Source: Saprospira grandis str. Lewin
GTDB lineage: Bacteria > Bacteroidota > Bacteroidia > Chitinophagales > Saprospiraceae
NCBI RefSeq assembly: GCF_000250635.1
Contig: NC_016940.1
Span: 1,032,995 to 1,096,994, forward strand
Length of the DNA: 64,000 nucleotides
Direction: 5' to 3'
Under the pieces are notes generated by a model. That model saw only the letters and a list, made by a program, of their open reading frames with translations. It made no database searches and was not told where the DNA came from. The position numbers were made by a program, and so were the translations under genes. The number at the start of each line of letters is the position of its first letter. Position 1 is the stretch's first letter. Shown piece by piece: positions 5,865 to 62,397 of this stretch.

Positions 5865-6201
5865 TTTTTGGGGCTGCCCCTGCGGCCTGTGGCCTTGGGT
5901 CGGGCCATTGCGCAGCTCGCAGGTCTGCTCGGCCCTTCGGCGCTTGCAGCGCCTCGGTCTGCCGCCTGCGGCGGCCCTGCTACAGCCCCTCAGCCGAGGC
6001 GCTGCGCGCCTTTGCGGCGGCTTCGCCGCCTGCTATACGCAAAACGGACCGCCAAGTTCTTGGCGGTCCGTTTCTATTTGGCCTAGGGGCCTGAAAGGGT
6101 GCCGCGAAGCGGCAGACCCAGCAGGCGAAGCCTGCGCAGGGCCGAGCAGACCTGCGAGCCCTGAAAGGGCCCGGCCGCCAAAGGCGGCAGGCCCCAAAAA
6201 A
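5865..6201. repeat. GC-rich REP-like palindromic element (composite, two inverted units)
   Basis: Contains the family cores gcgcagctcgcaggtctgctcggccc, ggtctgccgcctgcggcggccctgctacagcccctcagcc, and the inverted ggccgagcagacctgcgagccc with ggcaggccccaaaaaa. GC content is far above the flanks. Confidence 0.8.
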
Positions 6202-6203
6202 TC

Positions 6204-7652
6204 CTACTTCAACTGCCCTAAAGCATCTAGCAAATAAGCCCAGAATTTCTGTACCGAACTGATCTGTACCCGCTCATCAGGAGAATGCGCCCCCCGAATG
6301 TTGGGCCCAAAAGAAATCATCTGCATCTCCGGATAATGACGGCCCAAAATACCACACTCCAAACCCGCATGACAGGCATTTACATCGGGCTCCTCCTCAA
6401 AACGATCAAGGAAAAGCTGACGCATTTGGTCCACCAAACTAGAAGCCGGCAAAGGCTCCCAACCCGGATAACTGCCCGACAACTGCGTGTCGGCCCCCAA
6501 TAGTTCATACAATCCCTGAATGCTCTCGGCCAAAGCCCATTTCTCCGTGTCTACGGAGCTCCGACAAAGGCAAAGCACACTGTATTCCCCATTTTTGACC
6601 AGCAAACGCGCCAAGTTATTAGAGGTTTGGACCAAGCCCTCTATCTCGGGACTCATTCTGAAGATGCCGTTGGGCGTAGCCAATACCGCCGATAATAGGG
6701 CTTTTTGCTCCGCTTCTCCCAACTTGATGGCCGGTAGAGCTACCTCCTCTGCAGTGAAGCTAAGGCCGGGGTCAGTGCTGGCATATTCCGCCTTGAGCTC
6801 GGCCTCCAAAGCTGCTAGTTGTTCTTTGCATTGGGCCGCTTCTGCCTTGGGCAAAACCACAATAGCCCAGGCCTCTCGGGGAATCGCATTGCGCAATCCT
6901 CCCCCATCAAATTGGGCCAAAGACAAGGGAGAAAGCGCCCGAAGAACACGGGCCAATAATAGGTTGGCATTGCCCAAACCCTTAATAATATCCATACCCG
7001 AATGTCCACCACTCAAGCCTTTCAAACTGATTTTTAAGGCCAAATCTTCTTCTGCCCCTAAGGCCATAGGCGTATAGCTGCCCGCTACCGAGATATCTAC
7101 CCCACCAGCACAACCAATAGTCAATTCTTTGTCGTCTTCTGTGTCCAGATTGAGCAAGTAATCTGACTTTAACCAGTTGGGGCCCAAGCCCAAAGCACCC
7201 GTCATCCCCGTCTCTTCATCTATGGTAAATAGGGCCTCCAAAGGCGGATGCGGAATATCCGTACTGGCCAATAGGGCCATAATAGCCGCCACGCCAATGC
7301 CATTATCTGCCCCCAAGGTGGTGCCCTTGGCCTTTACCCAATCCCCCTCTACATACATCTCGATACCCTGGCTCGAAAAATCAAAATCGGTATCCGCATT
7401 CTTCTGATGCACCATGTCCAAATGGCTCTGTAAAAGAATAGTGGGACGGTCCTCTAGACCTGCTGTGGCTGGCTTTCGGACCAAAATATTCCCAACTTCA
7501 TCCTCCTCGGCCACTAATCCCAATTTGGATACATATTCACGCATAAATGCACATACCGCCTCCTCTTTTTTAGAGGGCCGAGGCACCGCATTTAGCTGAC
7601 TAAAGGCCTCCCATAATGCTTTTGGGGCCAATTCTGCTACTTTCTGACTCAT
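6204..7652 (-). CDS. pepD: aminoacyl-histidine dipeptidase (Xaa-His dipeptidase, peptidase M20C)
   Basis: 482 aa, HLDMV metal-binding motif, overall PepD-like organisation. Confidence 0.75.
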   Translation of the reverse strand: MSQKVAELAPKALWEAFSQLNAVPRPSKKEEAVCAFMREYVSKLGLVAEEDEVGNILVRKPATAGLEDRPTILLQSHLDMVHQKNADTDFDFSSQGIEMYVEGDWVKAKGTTLGADNGIGVAAIMALLASTDIPHPPLEALFTIDEETGMTGALGLGPNWLKSDYLLNLDTEDDKELTIGCAGGVDISVAGSYTPMALGAEEDLALKISLKGLSGGHSGMDIIKGLGNANLLLARVLRALSPLSLAQFDGGGLRNAIPREAWAIVVLPKAEAAQCKEQLAALEAELKAEYASTDPGLSFTAEEVALPAIKLGEAEQKALLSAVLATPNGIFRMSPEIEGLVQTSNNLARLLVKNGEYSVLCLCRSSVDTEKWALAESIQGLYELLGADTQLSGSYPGWEPLPASSLVDQMRQLFLDRFEEEPDVNACHAGLECGILGRHYPEMQMISFGPNIRGAHSPDERVQISSVQKFWAYLLDALGQLK

Positions 7653-7740
7653 GATTATATAGTATATTTGTTAGGCCAAAAAGCTAAGGAAAATTTAGAT
7701 AATGCCAAGGGATAAGCCCTATTTCTATCTGGCTTTTGCC

Positions 7741-8215
7741 TTTTATTTCGACGAAGGGCTTACCGTAATCCTTAGGAGGGCTTACTCTACCCCTTTCAAG
7801 GGGTTCAGCTAGCCATACCGAGGGCTTGTCGTAGTCCTCCCGAGGGGTTCAACTAGCCATACCGAGGGGGTGCTCTACCCCTCTCAAGAGGTTCAGCTAG
7901 CCCTACCGAGGGGTTACTCTACCCATCTCGAGGGGTTACCTTAGCCCTCTCGAGGGGTGCTCTCCCCCTCTCAAGGGGTTTAACTAGCCCTCCCGAGGGG
8001 ATACGCTAGCCCTCTCAAGGGGAGCAACTAGTACTACTGATGGGGCACTCTAGCCCTCCCAGGGGTTTGCCTTAGCCCTCCTGATGGGGTACGCTAGCCC
8101 TCTCAAGGGGGGCACCTAGCCATACCGAGGGGGTGCTCTCCCCCTCTACAGGACTTCCCCTGATCCTTCAGAGGGTCGTTCTTAGTCCTCAGAGGGATTC
8201 ATGCCCCCCCAGAAC
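7741..8215. repeat. degenerate tandem array of about 20 units of ~22 bp, each with a ccctc(t)cgagggg mini-palindrome
   Basis: Visible units include ctagccctctcgaggggttacc, ctagccctcccgaggggatacg and ctagccctctcaaggggagcaa. Non-coding. Confidence 0.8.
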
Positions 8216-8224
8216 TTTAGTTAA

Positions 8225-8440
8225 AGAAGCCCTAAAGAGGACCTAAACAAGTCCTAGCGAGGACTAGGGGCCAATCAAAAGAGGGCTTGGGCAAGCCCTA
8301 AAGACCATTTAGTCTATAGCAATTGAGGACTTGCCTAAGTCCATTCGAGGAGGTAGTAAAATGGAAGCGAGGACTTGCCTAGGTCCTGCGGAGGACCTAG
8401 GCAACATCAACGGAGGACCTATGAAAGTGCTACTGAGGGG
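8225..8440. repeat. hairpin-rich spacer with repeated gaggac..gtcctc stem-loops
   Basis: Repeats such as gaggacctaaacaagtcct and gaggacttgcctaagtcc / gaggacttgcctaggtcc, plus agggcttgggcaagccct. Confidence 0.6.
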
Positions 8441-8470
8441 GTAGAGTAATCCAAATGGCCAATTATGGGG

Positions 8471-8735
8471 CTCTTCAGGATTTTGTGTATTAGAATAAAA
8501 TTTGGGCCTTTAGCTTGTTGGGATTTAGCCAATAGTCGCCCAGGGACAAGCCCCTAGGCTAATCCAATGGAGTCAGCCCTCTTCGAGGGCCTCAACTGTT
8601 GATATACAAGGCCTTGTTCAGTTGTTATCGCAGAGAAAAACCTTATCCAAAGGCCCTCTTTAGAGGGCTGTCTGAAAAAGCTAGCCTAGGGGCTTGTCCC
8701 TAGGCAGCAAAAAGGAGAAACACAAAATTTTAAAC
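8471..8735 (+). mobile_element. 265-bp MITE-like element with terminal inverted repeats, copy 1
   Basis: About 90% identical to 43453..43716. Outer ends ggattttgtgt ... acacaaaatttt; inner inverted repeat tagtcgcccagggacaagcccctaggc ... gcctaggggcttgtccctaggc. No ORF. Confidence 0.65.
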
Positions 8736-8830
8736 AGACTCCAATTACAGTCTAATTAGTAAGATCTAGCTAAAAGCCCCCTTCTTTTATTTCTAAGATA
8801 AAAAGCAGACCTTGGGCAAAAATCAGTCAT

Positions 8831-10102
8831 ATGCCACAGCTTATCCGCTTTCTTATTTTGCTTTGTTTTCCCTTTATTCTTTTTGCTCAGCAGCCCTTGC
8901 GTTTGGTCGATCAACAGCTAGAACAACTGGTCCCTTTAGCCAATGGAGACTGGGGCTGGAGACCATTTTTAGAACTACCAACTACTTTAAAAACAGTAAC
9001 GGGCCAGGGGGAAGACATTTGGGCCATTAGTTTGGCCAATGAACTATTGCACTATAATAGAAGTCGAGATTACTGGGAAAACCTAGGCCAAATTGAAGGC
9101 CTTCCGGCCCTCATTCAAAGGAGTTTCCTCTATAAGGGGCAGCTGTATTTTCAATCTGGGGCCCTACTCTACCGTCTAGAGCTAGAAACTGAGGCCCAGC
9201 CAACTGTAGTCAAAAGAGGACTACCACTGCTGCTATCCAACTGGAGCTATCTGCCCAATCAGGGCCGTTTTTGGGCCATGCAATCTAGTGGGGCGCCCAT
9301 CTTTTTTGAGCCAGAGAGTGGTGTGATTGAACGGCCCAAAAAAACCTGGTTTAGGAATTTTGCTCGGGGGCAAAGCCAGGCCGAGGGACAACTTTGGCCC
9401 ATAGATGCAGAGCATTTTTTATACTTTAGTGTAGGGGCCCAAGAGCTCTACCTCCTCAATATGGCCAATTATGAAGCCTATAAATTGGGGCCCGTTCAGG
9501 GCATACAACCCAAGGCCGAAGTCCTTAGTCTCAATGGCCCTAAGCTTAAAAGCTTTCTTCCGCCAACGGCCAGCCGTTTGTATTGGGGTAAAGGCCTGCG
9601 AGGAGGCCGAATTAGCTGGTGGCAGCACCCTAGTCCAAAAATTGACCACTTTGAGCTAGAACGTAAGGAGGGAAGCAACAGCTCCTGGCTGATTGTCGGC
9701 AGCCTTAACGCCTATAATCCCCCCCATCAGGCAGGCTTTCATGCCCTAGATGATAGTCGAAAAAGGGGGAAATCAACGAGCTACCGCCTACTAGCGGTTA
9801 ATCCCTGGGGGCATAAGCGCTATTTACAAGAAATTTGCTTGGGCCCAGCCTGCCCTAAGGTCCAATTAGGTCCCAATATTTTATCGGCCCAAGAAGATTT
9901 ACGGCTCTATTTATCGGCCTTAAAGGGAGAATGGCTGAAAATAAAATGGAAAAGGGGCGGTAAAGTCGTTCAAAGCCAAGAAATCTATCTGGATTTACCC
10001 ACATATCAATTAACTTTGCCCGGACAGGCAGCGGGTCATTATGAGCTGTCTATTGAAAATGCCGACAACTGCCAGCGATTTCAGTTGTTTTATGGTTTTT
10101 AG
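8831..10102 (+). CDS. secreted hypothetical protein
   Basis: Signal peptide MPQLIRFLILLCFPFILFAQQ; 423 aa; no family recognised. Confidence 0.55.
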   Translation: MPQLIRFLILLCFPFILFAQQPLRLVDQQLEQLVPLANGDWGWRPFLELPTTLKTVTGQGEDIWAISLANELLHYNRSRDYWENLGQIEGLPALIQRSFLYKGQLYFQSGALLYRLELETEAQPTVVKRGLPLLLSNWSYLPNQGRFWAMQSSGAPIFFEPESGVIERPKKTWFRNFARGQSQAEGQLWPIDAEHFLYFSVGAQELYLLNMANYEAYKLGPVQGIQPKAEVLSLNGPKLKSFLPPTASRLYWGKGLRGGRISWWQHPSPKIDHFELERKEGSNSSWLIVGSLNAYNPPHQAGFHALDDSRKRGKSTSYRLLAVNPWGHKRYLQEICLGPACPKVQLGPNILSAQEDLRLYLSALKGEWLKIKWKRGGKVVQSQEIYLDLPTYQLTLPGQAAGHYELSIENADNCQRFQLFYGF

Positions 10103-10120
10103 CGAACAAAATCGAGATTA

Positions 10121-11401
10121 TTGGAGACGCAGCAAGCAAAAGCCCCTCTTATTTGGGCCTTAGCGGCTAGTTTGGGCAGTGGATTACTGCTGGCCTTTAG
10201 CCTTTCGACATATAGTATTGTATTGACGGCTTTCTTTGCCTTTATTCCTTTGCTTTGGCTTAGTAGAAGGCAGAGCTTTTGGCCTTTTGTAGGCTTTAGT
10301 ATCTTAAGCAACCTACTTGCCTATGGCCTCTTGGCCCCTCAGGCCATAGAGACGGTAAGCCTGCCTATGGGGCTGTTTTCTTGGGCCTTTGTCAGTCTGT
10401 TGTTTAGTATTCCCTGGGCTATGCTTTGGCTGATTCATCATCGGCACAATGCCAAATTGGGCTATTGGGCTTTTGTGAGTAGCTATTTGGCGCTGGAGTG
10501 GATGCAAGGGCAGTTTAGTGGACATTGGGCCGGTTGGCAGCTAGGAAGCTTGCCCCTGCTTTTTGGAAATAGTTGGCAGGCCTTAACGCTTGTGGGTACC
10601 GGGGGCGCTAGTTTATGGATCCTCAGCCTGAATATTCAGTGGTTCCGCTTTCTCTTTCCAGCCCAAGCCAAAAGTAGAAAAGGCGCTATTTGGGCCGGCA
10701 TTCCTTTGGTCCTCCTTCCCTTTATCCTCAGTTTGTTGATGGGGGCAGTACAAAAGGGAGATTCGGGCAGTTTTGTTTATCAGTCTAGCTACAAAAGCCA
10801 AAAAGGCCGCTTGCTGCTAGGCCAAGCCCCCAAAGAAGAGATTCCAGAAAATGCCCTTTATGCCCAAGAAAAGCCTTTAAATGATTGGGCCTATTTGGCC
10901 GGGCAAGATAGTTTGGGTAGCCTTCGGTTTTGGCAAAAAGGAGAGCGGCAGCCACTGAGTAGCCAAGCCTTTTCTGTTCGGACCATTTTGGGGGTAGAGC
11001 AGCGCTTTTTTCAGTTTATCGATTGGCAGGGCTCTCGCCTACTCCTGCTCAATGCCCATAGCCTAAAACGTACGGCCCCTATCCGAGAGGGCCTGCAAAA
11101 AGGAGCACAAACCGTTATTGCCTTTAGTCCAGACAGCAGTTTATCGCCGATTTTATACCGCTCGGCTAGGGCCCGTGCCCAAGAGAGTGGCAGTGATATT
11201 ATTTTGGTCCAAAAAAAGAAAGCTCATCATTTTTCGGCAAATGGCGACTACCAAGCCCTAGAAGATGGCCAAACCTGCAGCCCTAAAATATGGAGCCCTA
11301 CATTTTTTGCCCAATATGGCGATTTGCCTGGGCGATTGTCTATCTTTTTGGCGGCCTGGTTGGCTCTAGCCAGCATTGTCAAACCCTTCCGTAAAAAATA
11401 A
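10121..11401 (+). CDS. polytopic membrane protein, Lnt-like (apolipoprotein N-acyltransferase-like) with a divergent C-terminal domain
   Basis: About 6 N-terminal TM helices followed by a ~200-aa soluble domain. Weak similarity to the Lnt C-terminus (YRSARARAQESGSDIILV), but the catalytic E-K-C residues are not evident. Confidence 0.3.
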   Translation: METQQAKAPLIWALAASLGSGLLLAFSLSTYSIVLTAFFAFIPLLWLSRRQSFWPFVGFSILSNLLAYGLLAPQAIETVSLPMGLFSWAFVSLLFSIPWAMLWLIHHRHNAKLGYWAFVSSYLALEWMQGQFSGHWAGWQLGSLPLLFGNSWQALTLVGTGGASLWILSLNIQWFRFLFPAQAKSRKGAIWAGIPLVLLPFILSLLMGAVQKGDSGSFVYQSSYKSQKGRLLLGQAPKEEIPENALYAQEKPLNDWAYLAGQDSLGSLRFWQKGERQPLSSQAFSVRTILGVEQRFFQFIDWQGSRLLLLNAHSLKRTAPIREGLQKGAQTVIAFSPDSSLSPILYRSARARAQESGSDIILVQKKKAHHFSANGDYQALEDGQTCSPKIWSPTFFAQYGDLPGRLSIFLAAWLALASIVKPFRKK

Positions 11402-11409
11402 TTTAGCTC

Positions 11410-12144: not shown

Positions 12145-12159
12145 AGGGGAGCTCTGCTG

Positions 12160-12300
12160 TTTTGGGGCCTCCTGCCTACGGCAGGCGCTACGTTTCGCAG
12201 CTCGCAGGTCTGCTCGGCCCTTCGGCGCAAAGCGCCTCGGTCTGGCCTTCGGCCACTGCTACACATCGCTAGGCCAGTCCTCCCTTCGGTCGTCCTCTAG
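12160..12300. repeat. GC-rich REP-like element
   Basis: cgcagctcgcaggtctgctcggccc core. Confidence 0.75.
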
Positions 12301-12384
12301 CGCCCTAAACAAGCTGTACTTTTGGACCAACAAAAAGCCCCCGCAGTCTCTGACTGCGGGGGCTTCCTTTTTGCCTCGGCTAAT

Positions 12385-19445: not shown

Positions 19446-19699
19446 AAGGATAAAATGGGCTTTTTAGGGCCTTGGTCTTAATTTGTAGCTCATATTATCG
19501 CTTTTTGATGACATTAGCGAGTTTTTTAAGCAAAAAAAGGGGATTTTTTCTTACTGCTGAGAGAAAGAAAGGTAAAAAATCGAAAGGCTGCTATATTTCG
19601 CTTCTAAGCGCCTATAGTTAAACTGTAGTAGGGTCGGTCCAGAAAAAAAAGATAGGGCATTTTAGATACGCCCGGAGGAGTTTTGCAGTTGCAGATTAG

Positions 19700-20034
19700 C
19701 TCCGGGGATTCCCCAGAGCTGTTTGTAAGCTGCAGCAGCGCCCTAGACGGTTATTTCTCTCTAAAAAAACCGCCAACAGCACCCCTGAGGGATTCCTTAG
19801 GGAATCCCGAGGAGGGGCGGGTGGGCGGGGTCGTGAAAACGAATGAGGAGCGCAGCGACGAATACCGCTTTTCTGCGAAGGCCCGCAGGGCCGCTGAGGG
19901 CCCAGCGCTGCGGAGCGGGTGGCCGAAGGCCAGACCGAAGCAGGCGAAGCCTGCGCAGGGCCGAGCGAGCAGCGAGCCCCGCAGCATAGCGGCGGCCGCC
20001 CGCCCTTTTTGGGGCGGCCGCGGGCCCCAAAAAC
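19700..20034. repeat. GC-rich REP-like element (composite) including the gggattccttagggaatccc palindrome variant
   Basis: Shares cores with the other copies. The same palindrome variant occurs at 56930..56990. Confidence 0.75.
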
Positions 20035-20137
20035 ATAAAAATCAAAATAAACTTTCCTTTAAATCATAACAGAATGCCCGCATCCCTTGGACGATTCTGT
20101 ATCTTAGGAGCTCATTCAGCAAAACAAACCATCGCTT

Positions 20138-21372: not shown

Positions 21373-21535
21373 TTTGGGGCTGCCCCTCGCCTATCGGCTC
21401 GGGTCGGGCCATTGCGCAGCTCGCTACTCGCTCGGCCCTGCAGGCTTTTTCGCTACGCTTCAAAAGCCTTTGGTCTGCCGCCTTCGGCGGCCCTGCTACA
21501 GCCCCTCAGCCTGCGGCCCTTCGGGCCTGTCCCAT
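21373..21535. repeat. GC-rich REP-like element
   Basis: tttggggctgcccc...gggtcgggccattgcgcagctcgc...ggtctgccgccttcggcggccctgctacagcccctcagcc. Confidence 0.8.
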
Positions 21536-36030: not shown

Positions 36031-36169
36031 AAAGCTCTTGATCTAGATTTTGGGATGCTTGGGGCCCTCTTTAAGGAAAGGGCTCAGAAATGGCGAAAAT
36101 ACGAACAAAGCCATTATTTTTGTAGGCCTTAGGGCTTTTTTCGGTTCAAGGGATGAATTCTTCTGTTTT

Positions 36170-36375
36170 TTTGGGGCCTCCTGCCTACGGCAGGCGCTAC
36201 GTTTCGGGGCTCGCAGGTCTGCTCGGCCCTGCGCGGGCTGCGCCCGCTGGCTCTGGCGCTTCGCGCCACCCCTCCACATCGCTAGGCCGATCAAAAACTC
36301 CCTTTGGTCCTTGAAAGGCAGCCTTTGGCTGCCCAAAAGCTCGCTTTGCTCGCCCTGCAAACTGCTTTTTTGCTC
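36170..36375. repeat. GC-rich REP-like element
   Basis: ggggcctcctgcctacggcaggcgctacgtttcggggctcgcaggtctgctcggccc. Confidence 0.75.
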
Positions 36376-36467
36376 CTAAACCAACAGAAAAAGCCTTTTT
36401 TTACGTTTCTAAATTAGGCCCCTTTTGTTTGGACCAAAAAAATAGGGCCAAACAGTCCTTGGCCACA

Positions 36468-36665
36468 ACAAGCCCTTTAGGGCGTCTTCGACGACCAAAG
36501 GGAGTAACCGATGGTAGGCAGTGCGGCACAGCCGCAGACCTAGGCGGCTTTGCCGCCGCAGGGCCGAGCAGAGCTGCGAGCTGCCGAACGACAACAAGCC
36601 CTTTAGAGTGCAGTTCGACGACCAAAGGGAGTAACCGCAGCAAGCGCAGCGCAGCTGAGGCCCAA
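36468..36665. repeat. REP-like element, sub-variant with a duplicated caagccctttag.gtcttcgacgaccaaagggagtaacc module
   Basis: The ~40-bp module is directly repeated at 36468..36510 and 36590..36640. A related copy occurs at 62290..62395. Confidence 0.7.
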
Positions 36666-40736: not shown

Positions 40737-41834
40737 CTACTTTTTCTTGGCCACTAATTCATCAAAAAAGGCCAAATAACGCTCCTTTTGAGCCACTACA
40801 GCATACTCTTCTAACACCCTTTGTCGACCCGCCCGACCCAGCTCTGCCCGCAATTCAGGCGATTCAATCAAAGCCGAAAGCTGCGCAAACCACTCCTCCT
40901 CATTATGCGCCAAATAACCATTAACGCCCTGCTCTATAATTTCAGTATTTACGCCCACCGCCGACATCACCGCAGGCAAACCCAAAGCCATATATTGCAA
41001 GCCCTTCAAGCCACATTTCCCCTTGGTCCACTCATCCGTCGGCAAAGGCATCAAGCCAATATCCAACTCCACCAATTGCTCAATCTCATCCGCTTCGGTC
41101 CAAGCTACCCCCCGAATATCCAACTCAGGCAAACTATAATTGGCATCTCCAATCAACTTAAAGTAAATCTTATCGCCATACTTCTCCTTCAAACGACGCA
41201 AAACCGGCAATAACTGCTCAAAGTATTGTACCGTAGAAAAACTGCCCGTCCAACCAATACAAACAGCTGCATCCGCCGCCTTAGCCGGCTTAAATTTAGG
41301 ATGATGCCGCTGCTCATCCACAGTCGTCGGCAATACCTTTACACAATCATTATATTGCCTCGCATAATCCGCCAAATAACGATTCCCCGCAAATACCATA
41401 TCCGCCAAAGCAATCAATTCCGCCGTCTTATTCGCATTTTTCAAAAATCCCAAGGCCTTATTATTTGTCGATACATTTTGTAACCATATAGAATCGTCAA
41501 AGTCAAAAACCAAGGGCGCCCGCTTGGCAAAACGACGCTCAAAAAAAGAAGTCCCCAACATAAAAGCCTCCCGCTGCACATAAATCACATCAAATTGCTT
41601 GGCCCAAGCCCCAGAAGCCCGCCAAAGCCGCCAAATACTCTTCAACAAAACCTTCATTTTGCCCAAATACTGCCCCGCCCCATAAAAAACAGGATCATCC
41701 TCCGCCTCAATTAAATAAGAAAGCTCATAGGCATAACCATGCTCCTCCAAAAAATCTAAATACTGCTCATACCGAAAACGCTGTGAAGGCGAGCGATTTG
41801 GCCGATGTAAAGCCACAAAAAGAATCCGTTTCAT
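40737..41834 (-). CDS. glycosyltransferase family 4 (GT-B) protein
   Basis: C-terminal EGFGLP-type region GLKGLQYMALGLPAVMSAVGVNTEII...NGYL. Start placed at MKRILFVALH; the upstream 73 codons of ORF ..42053 lie in the REP element. Confidence 0.6.
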   Translation of the reverse strand: MKRILFVALHRPNRSPSQRFRYEQYLDFLEEHGYAYELSYLIEAEDDPVFYGAGQYLGKMKVLLKSIWRLWRASGAWAKQFDVIYVQREAFMLGTSFFERRFAKRAPLVFDFDDSIWLQNVSTNNKALGFLKNANKTAELIALADMVFAGNRYLADYARQYNDCVKVLPTTVDEQRHHPKFKPAKAADAAVCIGWTGSFSTVQYFEQLLPVLRRLKEKYGDKIYFKLIGDANYSLPELDIRGVAWTEADEIEQLVELDIGLMPLPTDEWTKGKCGLKGLQYMALGLPAVMSAVGVNTEIIEQGVNGYLAHNEEEWFAQLSALIESPELRAELGRAGRQRVLEEYAVVAQKERYLAFFDELVAKKK

Positions 41835-41854
41835 ACTATATTTTAGCCTATTGT

Positions 41855-42020
41855 TTTTTGGGGCTGCCCCCTCAGTTCCTTCGGGGTCGGGCTGTTTCGC
41901 AGCTCGCAGGTCTGCTCGGCCCTGCGGGCTTTTTCGCTCCGCTTCAAAAGCCCTAGGTCTGCCGCTTCGCGCCACTGCTGTCCATCCCTCAGCCGGCTCG
42001 CTTCGCTCGCCCCTGCCGCA
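41855..42020. repeat. GC-rich REP-like element
   Basis: ttttggggctgccccctcag...ttcgcagctcgcaggtctgctcggccc...ggtctgccgcttcgc. Confidence 0.75.
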
Positions 42021-42236
42021 GAATATAAACAACGCCTTTAAGGCCCCGCCCAAAAGTAAGACTTAATCAATGTATTTAATAATAGTGGCTTAGGATTCCA
42101 AATCTTATCTCCAACAAAATACAACTTCCTGTTTTTATTTGCAAAAATATATGCAACTATTTGTTTTTAAACAGATTTGTTTTAGATTTGTAGGGCAAGG
42201 GGACTTGTTCCTCCTCTGCTCGCCAAATGATCCAAT

Positions 42237-43299: not shown

Positions 43300-43445
43300 C
43301 CAAATAGACCTCCCTAGATCTATCCTATAAGGTCTATAGACCTACCTCATACAGTATAGAAACCTACCCAATACAGTTCAGCACCTACCTCATGCAGTAT
43401 AAGAACCTACCTCATACAGTATAGGAACCTACCCGATGCAGTTCA
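43300..43445. repeat. tandem array of about 6 degenerate 22-bp units (acctacc[tc][cg]at[ag]cagt[at][tc]ag[ga]a)
   Basis: Visible units include acctacctcatacagtatagaa, acctacccaatacagttcagc, acctacctcatgcagtataaga and acctacccgatgcagttcagaa. It lies directly upstream of MITE copy 2. Confidence 0.75.
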
Positions 43446-43452
43446 GAAGGGA

Positions 43453-43716
43453 CTGTTCAGGATTTTGTGTATTAGAATAAAATTTGGGCCTTTAGCTGCT
43501 TAGGATTTGGCCAGTAGTCGCCTAGGGACAAGCCCCTAGGCTAATCCAATGGAGTCAGCCCTGACAAGGGCCTCAACTGTTGATATACAAGGCCTTGTTC
43601 AGTTGTTATTGCAGAGAAGAACCTTATCCAAAGGCCCTCTTTAGAGGGCTGTCTGAAAAAGCTAGCCTAGGGGCTTGTCCCTAGGCGCAGGAAAAGGCAA
43701 ACACAAAATGTTAAAC
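43453..43716 (+). mobile_element. MITE-like element, copy 2
   Basis: About 90% identical to 8471..8735 over its full length, with the same nested terminal inverted repeats. Confidence 0.65.
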
Positions 43717-43735
43717 CGTCTCGCATTTGCATCTA

Positions 43736-46228: not shown

Positions 46229-46248
46229 TTCTTTTTTCCCATAATATT

Positions 46249-46425
46249 TTGGGGCCCGCGGCCGCCCTTTTTAGGAGGGGCGGCCGCCGCTATGCTGCGG
46301 GGCTCGCTATTCGCTCGGCCCTGCAGGCAGGCTTTGCCTGCCTTTGGTCTGGCCCTTTGGGCCACCCGCTCCGCAGCGCTGGGCCTTTGGCCTGCCGGCC
46401 ATGGCGGCTTCGCCGCCTCCCAGCC
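46249..46425. repeat. GC-rich REP-like element
   Basis: Contains gggcggccgccgctatgctgcggggctcgctattcgctcggccc, ggtctggccctttgggccacc and ggcggcttcgccgcc. Confidence 0.7.
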
Positions 46426-46448
46426 CTTTAAATTGGACCAAAAAAAAA

Positions 46449-46476: not shown

Positions 46477-46489
46477 GCTCTTAATGTAG

Positions 46490-46564
46490 GGAGGATGATG
46501 GGTTTCGAACCCACGACCTCCAGAACCACAATCTGGCGCTCTAACCAACTGAGCTACACCCTCC
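46490..46564 (-). tRNA. tRNA-His (anticodon GTG) with encoded G-1
   Basis: Reverse complement folds as a cloverleaf: acceptor GAGGGTG/CATCCTC with G-1:C73, D-arm GCTCAGTTGGTTAGAGC, anticodon loop TTGTGGT, T-arm GTGGGTTCGAACCCAT. No encoded CCA. Confidence 0.85.
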
Positions 46565-46660: not shown

Positions 46661-46670
46661 TTAAATGTAG

Positions 46671-46745
46671 GGAGGATGATGGGTTTCGAACCCACGACCT
46701 CCAGAACCACAATCTGGCGCTCTAACCAACTGAGCTACACCCTCC
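46671..46745 (-). tRNA. tRNA-His (GTG), second identical copy
   Basis: Sequence identical to 46490..46564. Confidence 0.85.
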
Positions 46746-54019: not shown

Positions 54020-54029
54020 CTAACGGTCC

Positions 54030-54180
54030 TACAGGCGGCGAAGCCGCGGAAGGCTGAGGGGCTGTAGCAGGGCCGCCGAAGGCGGCAGACCAAAGGCTTT
54101 TTAAGCGAAGCGAAAAGCCTGCAGGGCCGAGCAGACCTGCGAGCTGCGAAATGGCCCGACCCGCCCAAAGGGCGGGGCAG
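54030..54180. repeat. GC-rich REP-like element
   Basis: Contains ggcggcgaagccgcgg, gggccgagcagacctgcgagctgcgaaatggcccgacccgcc and gggcagccccaaaaaaa. Confidence 0.75.
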
Positions 54181-54182
54181 CC

Positions 54183-54213
54183 CCAAAAAAAGACGATCTA
54201 AAATAGATCGTCT
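54183..54213 (-). terminator. rho-independent terminator
   Basis: On the minus strand, stem agacgatct/agatcgtct is followed by ttttttt. Confidence 0.55.
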
Positions 54214-54219
54214 GAAAGG

Positions 54220-54747: not shown

Positions 54748-54752
54748 GCTGC

Positions 54753-55187: not shown

Positions 55188-55254
55188 AGAAAACTTTTTT
55201 TTGAATAAACATTTAGTTTATTTTAAAGGAGTTTTTCACTACATACTATAAGTT

Positions 55255-56706: not shown

Positions 56707-56711
56707 GTTTT

Positions 56712-56990
56712 GGGGCCTGCCGCCTTCGGCGGCCGGGCTATTGCGCAGCTCGCAAGTCTGCTCGGCCCTGCGCGGGCTTTGCCCGCTGGCTCGGCGGCTT
56801 TGCCGCCCTGCTGCATATCCCTAGGCCGCTCATCCGATGAGCATTTTTTGTAGCTGTCGCCTTTGGCCCTAAAACCGCCCCTTTTAAGCGGTATTCGTCG
56901 CTTCGCTCCTCATTCCTTAATATTAACCCGCCCACCCTCCCCTCCAATGGATTCCCTAAGGAATCCATTGGGGGAGTTTGGGCCAATATT
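56712..56990. repeat. GC-rich REP-like element (composite; includes the ccaatggattccctaaggaatccattgg palindrome)
   Basis: Contains gcgcagctcgcaagtctgctcggccc. 56930..56990 is the reverse orientation of the 19780..19815 variant. Confidence 0.7.
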
Positions 56991-57028
56991 AAAAATGCCG
57001 CTCCTTTTTAGGAGCGGCATTTTTTCTT
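56990..57028. terminator. bidirectional rho-independent terminator
   Basis: aaaaatgccgctcctttttaggagcggcatttttt. Confidence 0.6.
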
Positions 57029-57555: not shown

Positions 57556-57556
57556 A

Positions 57557-58021
57557 TTACTTCTTTTTTTTGCGAAAATACTTAGGATGCACCAGCAAGA
57601 GGCCAAAAGAAACGCCATCCTCTTTTTCCTGTTTGGCATGATGAGCGCCATGGGCACGCAAAATCCCTCTAGAATACCAGCCATCCAATTGTTTAAACCA
57701 TTTGAAGCGTTGGTGTATATATACGTCATGGATCAGGAAATAGATCAGCCCATAAATGGAAATGCCCACCCCCACAAAAAAGAGCGGAAAATAACCCGGT
57801 ACAGCCGAGCCAATAATATAAGAGGCCGCACTAGGGACCGCAAAGACCAAAAAGAAGAGATCATTTTTCTCAAAAAAGCCCTCTACCTCATGAGGCTTAT
57901 GATGATCTTCATGCCAAATCCATAAAAGGCCGTGCATAAGGTACTTATGGGCCAACCAGGCCACAAATTCCATGGCGATGACGCTAGCCAGCGTAATTAA
58001 GGTATAGAATAAAATCTGCAT
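57557..58021 (-). CDS. crtZ: beta-carotene 3-hydroxylase (sterol desaturase-family, CrtZ)
   Basis: Histidine boxes HEDHH, HDVYIH and HGAHH; 154 aa; carotenoid gene context. Confidence 0.7.
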   Translation of the reverse strand: MQILFYTLITLASVIAMEFVAWLAHKYLMHGLLWIWHEDHHKPHEVEGFFEKNDLFFLVFAVPSAASYIIGSAVPGYFPLFFVGVGISIYGLIYFLIHDVYIHQRFKWFKQLDGWYSRGILRAHGAHHAKQEKEDGVSFGLLLVHPKYFRKKKK

Positions 58022-58061
58022 ACTAAAGGTATTATGAGAAAGTGGAAATTATCTGCTCCAA

Positions 58062-58210
58062 AAGCGGGCGAAGCCCGCTACGGCTGAGGGATGGAAAGTG
58101 GGGCGGCGAAGCCGCAGACCCAGCGGGCGAAGCCCGCGCAGGGCCGAGCAGACCTGCGAGCCACGACAGAGCCCGACCCGAGCCGAAGGCGAGGGGCAGC
58201 CCCAAAAAAA
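58062..58210. repeat. GC-rich REP-like element
   Basis: Contains ggcggcgaagccgcagacc, gggccgagcagacctgcgagcc and gggcagccccaaaaaaa. Confidence 0.75.
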
Positions 58211-58213
58211 GAA

Positions 58214-58882
58214 CTACATCAATAAAAAGAGGTAGATCCAGAGAAAGAAAACGAACTGCCAAAGAAACAAAAATTCGAGGGCGGGGTTGCGCCTAGGCCC
58301 CAAAAAATGGCCAAAAAAGAGCTGTAGACCAAAGGCGGCCAGCCACCAAACCGCATAATTTTGCCAAGGAGCCACCAATAGGCTGTTGTAGGGCGTATTG
58401 CCCCAGCTCCACATATCGTAACGGACCGCAGCGGGCTCAATAAAGAGGTCGAGACTGACCATGAGGCTGGCCCCCAGCAGGCTGCGCAGCCAAAGCTGGC
58501 GGCTGGCAAAAAAGCGCAGAATGATCGAGCTAGAAGCATAGACCAGCATGGCCCAATTGAGGCCGATCATGAAAGGCGTGCCGCCCAACTGAGGGCCCAA
58601 AGTGGCGCCATAGCTATATTCTCCGAAGATGAGGCCCGTTTGCACCCCCGCCAATTCTAAAAACCAGCCGCCCCAATAAACCGCCAAAAGGGCCAAATAC
58701 AATCGTTTGTCTTGTTGTTTTTCGGCCCAAAGGCAGAGGCCAAAAGTTGTTAATAAGTTGAGGGGCGTGAGCCGCATAAATTCGGGATGCAAGGGCCAAC
58801 TGACGCCCAGCAAGCCCACAGCATAGAGGCAGCAGAGCAGAATGAGTACCCAATTTTGCTTTTGCGAATAGCTTAAGGACAT
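58214..58882 (-). CDS. carotenoid-biosynthesis-associated integral membrane protein
   Basis: 222 aa with 6-7 TM helices, lying between crtI and crtZ. No catalytic motif is identified. Confidence 0.4.
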   Translation of the reverse strand: MSLSYSQKQNWVLILLCCLYAVGLLGVSWPLHPEFMRLTPLNLLTTFGLCLWAEKQQDKRLYLALLAVYWGGWFLELAGVQTGLIFGEYSYGATLGPQLGGTPFMIGLNWAMLVYASSSIILRFFASRQLWLRSLLGASLMVSLDLFIEPAAVRYDMWSWGNTPYNSLLVAPWQNYAVWWLAAFGLQLFFGHFLGPRRNPALEFLFLWQFVFFLWIYLFLLM

Positions 58883-60367
58883 CTATTTTAGGTTTTTAAT
58901 GAGGTCTTCTGTGGCCAGCTTGGCCGATAAAAGGGCCAGGGGAATCCCGCCCCCAGGATGCACGCTGCCGCCCACAAAATAAAGGCCCGACAGCTGCCGA
59001 GAAAAGTTGGGATGACGGAAAAAAGCCGCCATGCTGTTGTTGGAGGAAGTGCCATATAAAGACCCCAAATGCGATTGGGTTTTTGCTTGAATGAGGGCGG
59101 GAGAAAGTAGCTCTTCCTGCACAATATGCGGCTGAATAGGGCGGCCCAAAATGCGCTCTAGCTTTTGGATAATCCGCTTTTTGCTTTGGGCAATCAATTG
59201 CTCCCAATCTTGGCCATCGAGTTGAGGGGCATTGATCATCACAAACCAATTTTCATGGCCCAAGGGGGCATCGGTTTGTTCAATTTTGGAGCTAATGTGA
59301 ATGTAGACCGTAGGATCTTCATAAAGGCTTTTTTCCTCAAATAGTTGGCGGAACTCCTCTGGATAATTATCACTGAAAAAGATATTATGCACATCTAGCT
59401 CGGGAAAACTTTGGTCCATCCCCCAATAAAAAATAAGGGCCGAAGAAGACTTCGGTTGCTCCAAAATGCGCTTAGGCCTAGGCTGTCTGGGCAGCAGGCG
59501 GTCGTAGGCAAAAAAGATATCCATATTGCAAACGACTTGATCGAAGGCGAGTTCTTTTTGGCCAATTCTGATGCCTTTTACGGCTTTGTTTTGGACCAAA
59601 ATCTCCTCTACTTTTTGTCCATAATGAAATTTTACGCCTAAATGTTCGGCCAAACGAACCAGCGAATGGCTAATTTCCTTCATGCCGCCCTTGGGCATAA
59701 AGGCCCCAAAACCCTGTTCCAGATGCGGAATCAGACTCATGATGCCTGGGGTTTTATAAGGACTAGAGCCATTATAAGTGGCATAGCGATTAAAGAGTTG
59801 GACCATTTTGGGATGCTGCTTTAGGCGCTTTTTATTCTCTTGGTCCAAAGAGCGATGCAGCCCTAGCCAAGGCATAGCCAAGACCCTCTTAAAGGTTTTC
59901 CAGCGCAAATAAGTGCTGAGTCGATGTAGTGAGTTTTCGAGAAAAATAGGGGCCGTAGTTTCGTATCTAAAGCGGGCCCAAGCCAGATAATCCTTAAGCG
60001 CTTGGGCGGGAAATCCCAGTTTTTCTTCTACCTCTTGGCCATATTTATGAAGATCGGCATAGGCGGAGATAGACTGCCCATCCTCCCAAAAATACTTACA
60101 AACCGTATTTAGGCGATGGTAATCAAAGCCGAAATCTTTGGGGTTTTCGCCAGCTAGGGCAAAGAGTTCTTCTACATATTGGGGCATGGTAAAGAGGCTG
60201 GGCCCCGCATCAAAGCGGTAATCTCCTACTTGCAAATTGGAGAGTTTGCCGCCGGGGTAACTATTGGCCTCAAAGACCGCTACCCTATGGCCAGCGGCGG
60301 CTAGGCGTACGGCCGCCCCAATGCCGCCAATGCCGGCGCCAATGATGGCAATATTTTGTTGATTCAT
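58883..60367 (-). CDS. crtI: phytoene desaturase
   Basis: N-terminal FAD-binding IAIIGAGIGGIGAAVRLAAAGHRVAVFE; 494 aa; GGS.HPGGG near the C-terminus. Confidence 0.8.
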   Translation of the reverse strand: MNQQNIAIIGAGIGGIGAAVRLAAAGHRVAVFEANSYPGGKLSNLQVGDYRFDAGPSLFTMPQYVEELFALAGENPKDFGFDYHRLNTVCKYFWEDGQSISAYADLHKYGQEVEEKLGFPAQALKDYLAWARFRYETTAPIFLENSLHRLSTYLRWKTFKRVLAMPWLGLHRSLDQENKKRLKQHPKMVQLFNRYATYNGSSPYKTPGIMSLIPHLEQGFGAFMPKGGMKEISHSLVRLAEHLGVKFHYGQKVEEILVQNKAVKGIRIGQKELAFDQVVCNMDIFFAYDRLLPRQPRPKRILEQPKSSSALIFYWGMDQSFPELDVHNIFFSDNYPEEFRQLFEEKSLYEDPTVYIHISSKIEQTDAPLGHENWFVMINAPQLDGQDWEQLIAQSKKRIIQKLERILGRPIQPHIVQEELLSPALIQAKTQSHLGSLYGTSSNNSMAAFFRHPNFSRQLSGLYFVGGSVHPGGGIPLALLSAKLATEDLIKNLK

Positions 60368-61270
60368 TTAGCTGTAAATTTTTTGGGCCATTCGGTAAGT
60401 GTTTGCATGGGCCTCAATGATATAGCGCAGCTGAGGCGAATAGCCGCCGCCCATACTGACCGCTACGGGAACGCCCGCCTTTTGGCAGCAGCTAAACACA
60501 AATTGGTCTCGCTGAGCACAGGCGTTTAAGCTTAGGCCCAAACGGCCCAACTTATCAGAGGCCAAGACATCTACGCCAGAGAGATATAGGACTATATCTG
60601 GCCGAAGGCTTTCGAGCAAAGCGGGTAAATAATCGGCTAAAACCTGCAAATAAGGGCCGTCATCCATCAGGTCGGGCAGGGCAATATCAAGGTCCGACCG
60701 CTCTTTGCGGAAAGGATAATTGGCCGCGGCATGCATAGAAAAGGTAAAGACCCTGGGCTCATTTTCGAAGATTTTGGCGCTGCCATTCCCTTGATGCACA
60801 TCCAAATCGACAATGAGAATTTGCTGGGCCAGGCCTTGGTCCAGGAGATAATTGGCCGCAATCGCAAAGTCGTTGAGCAGACAAAAGCCCTCTCCATGGC
60901 TGGCATAGGCATGATGCGTGCCGCCCGCAATATTGAGCGAAACCCCATATTCTTGGGCCGCCAAGCAGCAATCAATGGTCCCTTGAGCAATCACTTTAGA
61001 ACGCTGGACCAATTTCTCGGACATGGGAAACCCAATTTTACGGGCCGCTTTGGCCGAAATCGTTTGCTTTTTCAAAGAGTCCCAATAATCTTTGCTATGG
61101 GTGCGCAAAATCCATTCTTCGGCAATGGGTTGAGGGTGAAAAAAATTCTCTTCTTCCAGACAACCTTCATAAATGAGCTGCTGGGCCAATAGATCGTACT
61201 TGATCATAGGAAAGCGGTGGCCTTGGGGCAGCTCGTAGCGGTAGATGGGCGAAAAAGCAACTTTTAACAT
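60368..61270 (-). CDS. histone deacetylase-family (AcuC/acetylpolyamine amidohydrolase-like) protein
   Basis: GGTHHAYASHGEGFCLLND...VDLDVHQGNG fits the HDAC signature; 300 aa; stop abuts the crtI start. Confidence 0.7.
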   Translation of the reverse strand: MLKVAFSPIYRYELPQGHRFPMIKYDLLAQQLIYEGCLEEENFFHPQPIAEEWILRTHSKDYWDSLKKQTISAKAARKIGFPMSEKLVQRSKVIAQGTIDCCLAAQEYGVSLNIAGGTHHAYASHGEGFCLLNDFAIAANYLLDQGLAQQILIVDLDVHQGNGSAKIFENEPRVFTFSMHAAANYPFRKERSDLDIALPDLMDDGPYLQVLADYLPALLESLRPDIVLYLSGVDVLASDKLGRLGLSLNACAQRDQFVFSCCQKAGVPVAVSMGGGYSPQLRYIIEAHANTYRMAQKIYS

Positions 61271-61349
61271 TTTATTGATTCTTTGTTCTTAGAAAAGCAA
61301 TTTAGGAAAAAAGTTTTGAGCCCTTGCTAATTTAATTTTTTTGGGAGCT

Positions 61350-61500
61350 TCTTTTGGGGCCCGCGGCCAGCAAGCTGGCCGCCGCTATGCTGCGGGGCTC
61401 ACAGGGCTGTTCGGCCCTGCAGCCGCCTGCGGCGGCTTTGGTCTGGCCTTCGGCCACCCCTCCGCAGCGCTGGGCCGCTCAGCGGTCTTTTTTCTTTGGG
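61350..61500. repeat. GC-rich REP-like element
   Basis: Contains ggggcccgcggcc, gctatgctgcggggctc, ctgttcggccc and ggtctggccttcggccaccc. Confidence 0.7.
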
Positions 61501-61551
61501 CCCTCTTCTTCGGCGGCTGAATTTAGGGAGTAGCCGCCTAGCTGGGAGACG

Positions 61552-61628
61552 GTTTAAAATTTTGTGTGCGCCCTTTCCTGCGCCTAGGGACAAGCCCCTA
61601 GGCGACTATTGGCCAAATCCCGAATAGC
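61552..61628 (-). mobile_element. internally deleted (solo-TIR) inverted copy of the MITE-like element
   Basis: gtttaaaattttgtgt..gcgcctagggacaagcccctaggcgactattggccaaatcc is the reverse complement of the two ends of the 265-bp element, joined with the ~190-bp core missing. Confidence 0.55.
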
Positions 61629-62050
61629 TTCCCCCGCTTTACAAATGCCGTTTCACAATTTCAGAATAGCTTGCCGCAACTGTAAGATGCTGTTTTGCAA
61701 TTTCAGAATAGCTTGCCGCAACTGTAAGATGCCGTTTTGCAATTTCAGAATAGCTTGCCGCAACTGTAAGATGCCGTTTTGCAATTTCAGAATAGCTTGC
61801 CGCAACTGTAAGATGCCGTTTTGCAATTTCAGAATAGCTTGCCGCAACTGTAAGATGCCGTTTTGCAATTTCAGAATAGCTTGCCGCAACTGTAAGATGC
61901 TGTTTTGCAATTTCAGAATAGCTTGCCGCAACTGTAAGATGCTGTTTTGCAATTTCAGAATAGCTTACCGCAACTGTAAGATGCTGTTTTGCAATTTCAG
62001 AATAGCTTACCGCAACTGTAAGATGCTGTTTTGCATCTGCAGAATAGGGC
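61617..62050. repeat. 42-bp tandem repeat array, about 10 units
   Basis: Unit tttcagaatagcttgccgcaactgtaagatgc[ct]gttttgcaa. Nine perfect-phase copies at 61659, 61701 ... 61995 plus degenerate end units. Variants ctg/ccg and cttgccgc/cttaccgc cluster by position. No spacers, so not CRISPR. Confidence 0.85.
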
Positions 62051-62171
62051 ATAAAGGTTTTGATGAGGTATTTGATCGCTGTCAATGGGTATAACTCAGG
62101 GCTTCAGCCCATGGGCCCAAAACTATCCAGCCGCCGAAGAAGAAAGCCAAAAGAAAAAAGACAGATGAGCA

Positions 62172-62397
62172 GGCCTAGCGATGCGAAAGGGGGCGGCGAA
62201 GCCGCAGACCAAGGCCGTCAGGCCGCAGGGCCGAGCAGACCTGCGAGCCCTGAAGCGTAGCGCCGACGACCGAAGGGAGGCGGAGGCCCCAAAAAATCAG
62301 CGAGCTGCGACAACAAGAACTTTAGTTCGTCTTCGACGACCAAAGGGAGTAAACGTAGCGCCGACGAGCATAGCGAGGCGGAGGCCCCAAAAAAACA
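62172..62397. repeat. two adjacent REP-like elements (including the cgtcttcgacgaccaaagggagtaa sub-variant)
   Basis: Contains ggcggcgaagccgcagacc, gggccgagcagacctgcgagccc and the ttcgtcttcgacgaccaaagggagtaaacg module. Confidence 0.7.

Follow-up and report, generated by a model that had tools for sequence, protein, structure and literature searches.

What kind of element fills the gaps between genes in Saprospira grandis str. Lewin, and what keeps its many copies alike? In a stretch of 64,000 nucleotides of its chromosome (NC_016940.1, positions 1,032,995 to 1,096,994; hereafter the window), a first inspection of the letters, referred to here as the sequence-only reading, had pointed to a family of GC-rich palindromic repeats and had likened them to repetitive extragenic palindromic (REP) sequences and bacterial interspersed mosaic elements (BIMEs). 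The present study analyses this family in the window and in a wider sample of related DNA. We propose a REP-like dispersed element in which selection acts on the single-strand fold and the variable domains are exchanged among some 1,500 copies, a reading to which we give a probability of about one half. The family appears to be previously undescribed, both in Saprospira and in its relatives, and no description linking Saprospira or the Saprospiraceae to REP sequences or to their associated transposase RAYT was found in a literature search that did not cover the genome papers of S. grandis Lewin and Sa g1.

A covariance model of the repeat (R1, 24 base pairs) retrieves 22 copies of a ~120-nt GC-rich unit in the window, that is one per 2.9 kb, at 58-129 bits, with the next match at only 12.6 bits. 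An nhmmer profile made from the window copies also finds 22, and the core GCTCGCAGGTCTGCTCGGCCC occurs 17 times at three mismatches or fewer as compared with 0.01 expected. All 21 loci named by the sequence-only reading proved to be real, the gap at 5.9 kb having two copies, and its picture of a dense, hairpin-rich intergenic family in both orientations was confirmed. The copies span 2,817 nt or 4.4% of the window, their GC content is 68.9% as compared with 46.5% in the remainder and 47.5% in the whole window, 10 lie on the forward and 12 on the reverse strand, and all 22 fall outside the long open reading frames (ORFs) of the ORF list. The statement that almost every gap is occupied stands for the larger gaps, since by a manual count from the ORF list ~19 of the ~24 gaps above 100 nt hold at least one copy, and fails as a general statement. 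Two gaps contain tail-to-tail pairs (5.9/6.1 kb and 36.2/36.5 kb), and in a third two-copy gap, at 61.4-62.2 kb, the copies lie on either side of a 42-nt tandem array. The flanking genes, called here as elsewhere in the analysis with simple ORF heuristics, are ordinary chromosomal genes in both orientations, coding among others for a HemN-like radical SAM enzyme, an M20 peptidase, an NS endonuclease, a CHAT protein, a pyridoxal phosphate-dependent decarboxylase and a carotenoid synthesis protein.

The wider sample comprises tiles of S. grandis DSM 2844, to which the window is 90-95% identical, and the metagenome Ga0193958, which contains a third, more distant Saprospira at 74-88% identity and contributes 340 more copies in 870 kb. 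With 22 copies in 64 kb of the window and 306 matches in 107 tiles of DSM 2844, the family is as abundant and as extragenic as REP sequences are (more than 100 copies per genome). The alternating clusters with conserved motifs that distinguish BIMEs were not seen, the whole unit lying single or in tail-to-tail pairs. Extrapolating the unbiased density of the window would give roughly 1,500 copies per ~4.3-Mb genome, and our copy number is to be read as such an extrapolation.

The strand on which the element reads from head to tail is called F and its complement R. The unit measures ~116-140 nt (median 122 nt), begins with GGGGC, ends with GCC and has 4-7 T just before it, the positions -1 to -3 being T in 98-100% of the cases. 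Along the F strand the T-run is followed by the head GGGGC, a hairpin H1, a subfamily-specific linker L1, the core, TGC or TTC, a hairpin H2, TNGGTCT, a hairpin H3 and a tail of 20 nt with GCC at its end. The core, GCTCGC-(AGGTCT or TNYTC)-GCTCGGCCC, is a 20-nt invariant segment, mostly unpaired. The shared cores listed by the sequence-only reading blend conserved linkers with hairpins that vary from copy to copy. Head, L1 and tail define the subfamilies:

Subfamily B: head GGGGCCT, tail AGGCC, 91 copies
Subfamily A: head GGGGCTG, tail CAGCC, 67 copies
Subfamily C: head GGGGCCC, tail GGGCC, 36 copies
Subfamily A2: head GGGGCTT, tail AAGCC, 9 copies

In each of them the termini are complementary over 5-7 nt, with four covarying versions. 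Such termini are what the inverted repeats of miniature inverted-repeat transposable elements (MITEs) would look like, and a helix, P1, explains them equally well. Five helices are well supported altogether, the long-range P1 and Px and the local hairpins H1, H2 and H3. P1 closes the element by pairing its termini and Px encloses the core, giving a multi-branched single-strand fold, in which the stems of H1-H3 consist of 5-8 bp of G+C with loops mostly of 3 nt. Px is formed by two 4-nt segments, one ending at the first G of the core and the other located 20 nt from the 3' end. It is perfect in 211 of the 225 copies parsed full-length, compared with a mean of 56 and a maximum of 73 after shuffling, and occurs in eight complementary variants: GGGG/CCCC (82 copies), GCAG/CTGC (51), AGGG/CCCT (41), GTGG/CCAC (18), GCCG/CGGC (10), GCGG/CCGC (7) and two further ones with 1 copy each. 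Each major variant is present in several subfamilies. The second species replicates the result, with 192 perfect cases out of 211 and the extra variants CTGG/CCAG and ACCG/CGGT. At 36.2 kb the full model is recovered in the R strand's minimum-energy fold. Two other pairings were rejected, namely a stem CAGGGC/GCCCTG closing the core, which competes with Px and is not the one backed by covariation, and an outer inverted repeat TTTTGGGGCC…GGNCCAAAA, whose enrichment of only 32% versus 15% does not make it a general feature. One copy of DSM 2844 (L100 5832-6006) has an internal duplication of the segment GCTCGGCCCTGCGCGG, which suggests slippage within the element.

Is this fold maintained, or is it a relic of the common origin of the copies? 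To address the question, 140 copies from two species were aligned with MAFFT, without fitting the alignment to a structure, and P1, outer H1, Px, H2 and H3 were tested on it. Standard pairs are found in 95.3% of the cells versus 73.7% in shuffles, and changes on both sides in 612 cells versus 197 (0 of 500 shuffles in both cases); one-sided changes amount to ~22 cells. The covariation score is 0.494, falling to 0.149 when shuffled and to 0.104 or less with the partners slid by 1-3 columns. The adjusted mutual information between the two strands of Px, ~70 nt apart, is 0.83-0.85, and between Px and the state of the core 6 nt away it is 0.03-0.04; values for Px against H2 or H3 stay below 0.09, against the adjacent H3 reach 0.12 and against the subfamily ~0.2. 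Relatedness does not account for the covariation: the modules reassort almost freely while base-paired partners remain matched. This combination implies either selection on pairing at each locus or the exchange of whole helix-enclosed domains. The fold is kept by selection or by pairing-preserving exchange, and not by shared descent.

The hairpins are hypervariable. H2 is represented by 105 distinct perfect hairpins among 185 copies, single versions recurring across subfamilies, and the variable stems are almost always perfectly Watson-Crick paired (275 perfect, few with a mismatch). Their loops are closed by C-G and strongly strand-asymmetric, a pattern repeated in the second species. On the F strand TTC was counted 151 times and its reverse complement GAA 5 times, with corresponding figures of 115 and 2 for TGC and GCA, 15 and 0 for TAC and GTA, and 70 and 32 for TTT and AAA. 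The R strand bears c(GNA)g triloops, an unusually stable mini-hairpin motif in DNA, and these loops may be connected with the function of the element. An asymmetry of G.T over A.C mismatches was considered as an indicator of the folded strand and discarded, its excess of 26 versus 3 coming from one inherited hairpin of subfamily A.

Fixed loci were compared next. Each of the 12 sites set against DSM 2844 holds an element in the two strains, and of those examined against the second Saprospira species in Ga0193958 none was empty; sites that seemed empty from size deficits were remnants, or differed by a nested 45-nt module (module S, described below). Between the two species 31 orthologues could be cleanly paired, with flanks 86.5% identical. 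The 7-nt head is identical in 29 of these pairs, the 5-nt tail and both core halves in all 31, and the 11-nt middle of the tail in 23, as compared with 3 for H1, 6 for H2 and 5 for H3. Where H2 differs, it does so at five or more positions in 24 of 25 pairs, and the hairpins are still perfect palindromes. In 14 of the 31 pairs the two core centres are not the same, and the strands of Px have changed jointly in 6 and one alone in 2. Furthermore, 24 of ~38 H2 arms are common to both species and account for ~88% of the copies, which indicates that the replacement hairpins are drawn from a common pool. The element at 21.4 kb is ~97% identical between species versus ~87% for the flanking coding sequence, and the one at 58.1 kb belongs to subfamily A in the window and to subfamily B in DSM 2844, between identical flanks, the third genome holding only a remnant. 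Taken together, frame and genomic position have been inherited vertically over at least 13% sequence divergence, and hairpins, Px variant and core centre have been replaced as blocks from a pool shared between the species.

Beyond Saprospira, the exact core was sought with one genome per species. Among the matches listed most belong to DSM 2844, followed by several contigs from two Lewinellaceae and two Saprospiraceae metagenome-assembled genomes (MAGs); single matches in a Thermoleophilaceae MAG and a gammaproteobacterial MAG, with model scores at chance level, are probably fortuitous. Viral contigs gave no exact match to the core. The two Saprospiraceae MAGs score 85.6 and 56.7 bits, with all helices rebuilt from different sequences (Px being GUAG/CUAC). 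The copies in the Lewinellaceae MAGs, genomes of 56-62% GC, score 18-26 bits, and they contain the exact core and a compensated P1, GCGTG/CACGC in place of GGCTG/CAGCC; both core states are present in this family. The occurrence of the exact core across Saprospiraceae and Lewinellaceae implies that the family is old and that the core is its constrained part.

The copies in the window, with their scores under model R1, and the repeats nested in them or next to them are the following:

5866..5995, forward strand: element copy with head GGGGCTG and tail CAGCC, 76.7 bits; it starts 20 nt past the stop codon of the HemN-like gene 4704..5846
6080..6199, reverse strand: element copy, tail-to-tail with the preceding one and separated from it by a bidirectional terminator-like hairpin at ~6041-6075, 101.3 bits; its head adjoins the M20 peptidase gene 6204..7652 at the stop codon
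12160..12275, forward strand: element copy of subfamily B (GGGGCCT / AGGCC), 117.7 bits
14468..14583, reverse strand: element copy of subfamily B with core state 2 (GCTCGCTATTCGCTCGG), 107.5 bits
19782..19870, no strand assigned: separate ~90-nt repeat with the GGGATTCC..GGAATCCC palindrome; its inverted partner at 56886-56974 is 83% complementary
19899..20032, reverse strand: element copy of subfamily C (GGGGCCC / GGGCC) in a divergent gap, 79.4 bits
21372..21511, forward strand: element copy with a long H2 variant, 69.4 bits
24576..24704, reverse strand: element copy, 72.1 bits
26023..26142, forward strand: element copy of subfamily B in a divergent gap, 127.5 bits
28460..28597, reverse strand: element copy of subfamily C, 99.7 bits
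32686..32806, reverse strand: element copy of subfamily B, 128.7 bits; its H1 and H2 are unlike those of the DSM 2844 orthologue, and the frame is identical
36169..36288, forward strand: element copy of subfamily B, 118.4 bits; H1, H2 and H3 all differ from the DSM 2844 orthologue
36464..36508, reverse strand (converted from reverse-strand offsets): module S, 45 nt (GTTACTCCCTTTGGTCGTCGAA..hairpin..CTTGTTGT), in the tail context CATCG..GGCC
36506..36621, reverse strand: element copy, 68.2 bits, with copies of module S (36591-36635 and 36464-36508) in place of its 5' part and tail
36591-36635 and 62310-62353, both reverse strand: further copies of module S
41856..41994, forward strand: element copy of subfamily A, through which ORF 40737..42053 is extended, 97.3 bits
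43671..43822, reverse strand: element copy with intact 5' half, 58 bits; the 3' half is replaced by another repeat, common to 8586-8746
46247..46385, forward strand: element copy of subfamily C, 83.9 bits
47367..47484, reverse strand: element copy of subfamily B, 114.7 bits
50689..50826, forward strand: element copy of subfamily A in a divergent gap, 72.3 bits; its core state is unlike that of the DSM 2844 orthologue
54052..54188, reverse strand: element copy, 80.7 bits
56708..56827, forward strand: element copy with a head of the GGGGCCTGCC type, 103.8 bits
58082..58207, reverse strand: element copy of subfamily A, 92.9 bits
61352..61476, forward strand: element copy of subfamily C, 94.5 bits, DNA fold z-score -3.6
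62172..62294, reverse strand: element copy of subfamily B, 101.2 bits; the DSM 2844 orthologue lacks the segment from head to L1 and has module S in its tail

The two sub-variants that the sequence-only reading had distinguished are in fact separate repeat families, the ~90-nt repeat and the 45-nt module, located beside or inside the elements. The 1.9 Mb of DNA sampled contain 102 copies of module S, which is made up of GTTACTCCCTTTGGTCGTCGAA, a variable hairpin and CTTGTTGT; 78 of these have a core no more than 160 nt away, and CG precedes 76. The module takes the place of CTA in GGCG/CTA/CGTT (L1) or in CATCG/CTA/GGCC (tail), both predicted to be unpaired. Its presence in the 62.2 kb tail of DSM 2844 (L041) and not in that of the window strain indicates recent movement. 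Each window copy of the ~90-nt repeat adjoins an element, and elsewhere the repeat is rare, the tiles of DSM 2844 containing 5 copies and Ga0193958 containing 2.

With respect to the genes, convergent gaps contain ~25% of the copies, divergent ones ~21% and tandem ones ~54%, roughly in line with the abundance of these gap types, and the copies in tandem gaps divide into 43 co-oriented and 42 anti-oriented ones. With respect to replication, the 306 copies of DSM 2844 (161 on the forward and 145 on the reverse strand) have a flat distribution along the 4.4-Mb scaffold, with none of the bias typical of IS200/IS605 elements. On the ORF list the head faces the adjacent gene in all 22 window copies. 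The rule that the head always abuts a gene was not upheld in the larger sample, where a weak trend is left, the head being the closer end in 103 of 149 singletons.

What, then, might these copies do? The sequence-only reading had suggested that they mark transcription-unit boundaries, and it is true that many of them lie directly past stop codons and that the terminator-like hairpin at ~6041-6075 is placed between a convergent pair. However, of 416 elements only 2 contain a hairpin with a T-run and only 26 have one in the 100 nt downstream, and the T-run of the element precedes the structure instead of following it; for these reasons the element is not an intrinsic terminator. A role as terminator or boundary marker is very improbable, given that all gap types are occupied, divergent ones at chance expectation, and that the orientation is random. 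The serious rival is an RNA-level element, whose units would be transcribed in 5' or 3' untranslated regions or as small RNAs; their RNA fold would help to stabilise or process mRNA or to bind protein, with the core as the site of an RNA-binding protein. The strong covariation of long-range helices is typical of structured RNAs, the structure is kept across genera, the REP sequences of E. coli act in mRNA, and about one third of the copies whose head faces a stop codon begin 5-15 nt from it and would thus be co-transcribed. Against this, the absence of an orientation preference means that host transcripts would carry the core in either sense, and divergent gaps, which contain promoters, are occupied as often as the others. 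Furthermore, G.U pairs are almost absent, as the ratio of one-sided to two-sided changes demonstrates, the 3-nt loops are not GNRA or UNCG tetraloops, and no conserved promoter was recognised. No Rfam family matches either, a search of the window at the gathering score giving the two tRNA-His genes only and one of 5800-6300 at E<=10 nothing meaningful. The RNA-level explanation is possible but doubtful in our opinion. We favour a role in DNA, where the element would probably act as a folded strand or as a cruciform, because the pairing is Watson-Crick only, the orientation is random, promoter gaps are occupied and the loops are of the GNA type.

Alternatively, the repeats could be a selfish family of the MITE or REPIN type, in which stems and complementary termini would simply reflect the recent amplification of a few master copies with terminal inverted repeats by a transposase encoded elsewhere. 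The short complementary termini, the subfamilies with linked head, L1 and tail, the very high copy number and the constant T-run 5' of every copy, a possible target site, would agree with such an origin, as would the nested module S, which differs in presence between strains, and the site with different subfamilies in two strains. Nevertheless, the sites compared are all occupied, and no direct repeat flanks the unit as the target-site duplication of a MITE would. In the 1.9 Mb sampled, ~20% of each genome, tblastn with E. coli RayT (a method weak for distant relatives) gave dihydrofolate reductase and the antisense of real genes, without any RAYT; self-BLAST of the same DNA for an autonomous partner returned only an IS3 element and gene families, and the sole insertion sequence seen in the sample is this unrelated IS3-family element (L009 6310-7788). 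Descent from master copies also leaves inexplicable the linkage equilibrium of modules with matched paired partners, and frames far more conserved than neutral flanks and a core identical across bacterial families speak against it as well. Such an origin is improbable.

We thus return to a REP-like dispersed element with a selected single-strand fold. Its ~1,500 copies would be reshuffled among themselves, either through ectopic gene conversion over short tracts or through an exchange of domains; the conserved linkers would provide the homology, and the exchange may be promoted by breaks at the hairpins. The invariant and mostly unpaired core would represent the putative binding site of a trans-acting protein, and transposition would be rare or absent today. 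A number of observations weigh against this proposal. Neither a trans-acting protein nor an autonomous partner was found in the DNA sampled. The loci of the wider sample were chosen for containing the exact core, and the complementarity statistics come from 225 of 333 profile hits (~68%), those parsed full-length, which favours intact copies. Our preference for DNA over RNA is one that we infer, and both strands fold about equally, the mean minimum free energy as RNA being -57.4 for the forward strand versus -58.9 for the reverse. The z-scores of single-sequence DNA folds are modest (-0.1 to -3.7), because shuffled sequence so rich in G+C folds well too. If one specific DNA strand folded in replication, an orientation bias would be expected, and none is seen; the asymmetry of the loops could be an inheritance from ancestral hairpins instead of the result of selection. 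Finally, the replacement of the whole element at 58.1 kb is hard to explain by homologous conversion, as the shared termini are only ~11 and 3 nt long, so some site-specific process may exist. A bolder version of the proposal, which we consider rather unlikely, would see in these repeats a new structure-selected class of genomic elements in Bacteroidota, which the host or some dedicated enzymes would maintain. In it a folded single-strand scaffold with an invariant protein-binding core would have its helix-enclosed H1, H2, H3 and Px domains swapped as cassettes among more than 1,000 loci and its unpaired loops targeted by the 45-nt module. Site- or structure-specific recombination would then be at work throughout the genome, in place of a passive conversion of dead transposons.

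The window contains further repeats. The palindrome TTGGNCCAA occurs 32 times versus 2.35 expected (0 of 100 shuffles), in genes and between them (for instance at 12322-12330, 36429-36437 and 46433-46441), and at ~1 per 2 kb in DSM 2844 also; it is over-represented throughout the genome and looks comparable with HIP1, the highly iterated palindrome of cyanobacteria. Two intergenic tandem arrays, 7776-8147 and 43340-43442, have a 22-nt period, the first with a super-period of 44/88 nt, and 62-81% agreement between copies. These arrays bring to mind the minisatellite-bearing MITE described from Porphyromonas gingivalis (PMC4596501). The array between the two elements of the 61.4-62.2 kb gap (61645-62047) comprises 9.6 copies of a 42-nt repeat, with 97% identity among them; one ORF on each strand covers it (61609..62094 and 61639..62085), and its region measures ~708 nt between alignment blocks versus 556 nt in DSM 2844. 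An intergenic duplication of ~280 nt relates 8467-8746 to 43449-43727 at 91-93% identity, with a third, partial and inverted copy at 61543-61603. The duplicated segment contains the hairpin GCCTAGGGGCTTGTCCCTAGGC, and at 43.7 kb it replaces the 3' half of the element. Among the genes, 2143-4360 is a series of four tandem paralogues of ~175 aa with lipoprotein-type signal peptides (…LSSCQ), whose 79-nt 5' regions are 85-100% identical, and two tRNA-His(GTG) genes on the reverse strand (46489-46563 and 46670-46744, 181 nt apart) are situated just downstream of the 46.3 kb element.

If the extrapolation holds, one type of element would make up ~4% of the genome of S. grandis and most of the larger gaps between its genes, and of this element the fold and not the sequence is preserved in more than 1,000 copies and across genera. 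Hundreds of independent compensatory changes bear on the way in which pairing is maintained in repeated DNA, be it selection, gene conversion or domain-wise exchange, and the invariant core points to a putative protein that reads it. On the practical side, the elements give rise to spurious ORFs in Saprospiraceae annotations, and to N-terminal extensions that are false. Both effects had been anticipated by the sequence-only reading, and the ORFs 5868..6086, 19683..20069 and 36050..36379 do lie on elements, those at 21412.. and 40737..42053 entering them at their 5' ends. The elements should also be masked in searches for non-coding RNA. The sole public contig with an identical HemN-like protein (L001, Logan SRR29904084, 2,019 nt, equal to window 3902-5920) stops in the repeat core, ~55 nt into the element, which means that the repeats break short-read assemblies.

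Compared with known systems, the element shares with REP sequences and BIMEs a high copy number, an extragenic location, G+C-rich hairpins, both orientations and frequent inverted pairs, as well as a mosaic organisation, compensatory changes in stems and long vertical persistence in a lineage. The mosaic makes the label BIME-like acceptable in a loose sense; in a BIME, however, the hairpins are conserved and the linkers variable, the reverse of what is found here. The REP part of the label fails on defining features. A REP is one palindrome of 20-40 nt, whereas the Saprospira unit has ~120 nt and at least five helices, two of them long-range. A REP palindrome also has at one of its ends a tetranucleotide tag, GTAG or CGTC (Di Nocera et al. 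2013, PMC3733652). In our family no such tag is general: GTAG is found only in subfamily B, on the reverse strand and 2-3 nt from H1 (…ACGTAGCGCC…), subfamily C having ATAG and subfamily A none. The host, moreover, belongs to the Bacteroidota, and the 1.9 Mb sampled yielded no RAYT, a negative that carries little weight.

The elements derived from IS200/IS605 and known as PATEs resemble it in the absence of target duplications, in a constant 5' sequence (here the T-run), in hairpins near the ends and in a plausible single-strand folding. They differ in their bias with respect to replication; moreover, neither TnpA nor TnpB was detected in the DNA sampled, the Rfam searches brought up neither HEARO nor omega-RNA, and hairpins recognised by a transposase would be conserved and not hypervariable. 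The pneumococcal BOX, the Correia elements of Neisseria and the enterobacterial ERIC are of similar size (100-200 nt) and intergenic, and they are likewise modular (boxA-boxB-boxC), with a stable predicted structure and an indirect or obscure mobilisation. These families have long terminal inverted repeats, with TA target duplications in the case of Correia, and their copies differ by point mutations; to our knowledge none of them combines an invariant unpaired core with hypervariable perfect hairpins, or has long-range helices with eight or more compensatory variants. The attC sites of integrons, finally, carry R and L boxes (GTTRRRY), absent from the Saprospira elements, and form cassette arrays of single orientation at far lower copy number, whereas the neighbours of the Saprospira elements are ordinary chromosomal genes in both orientations. 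In attC sites, as here, structure is conserved and sequence variable, and the site often lies directly 3' of a gene; they are thought to act as one folded DNA strand that is read by a protein, and the same is proposed for the Saprospira element.

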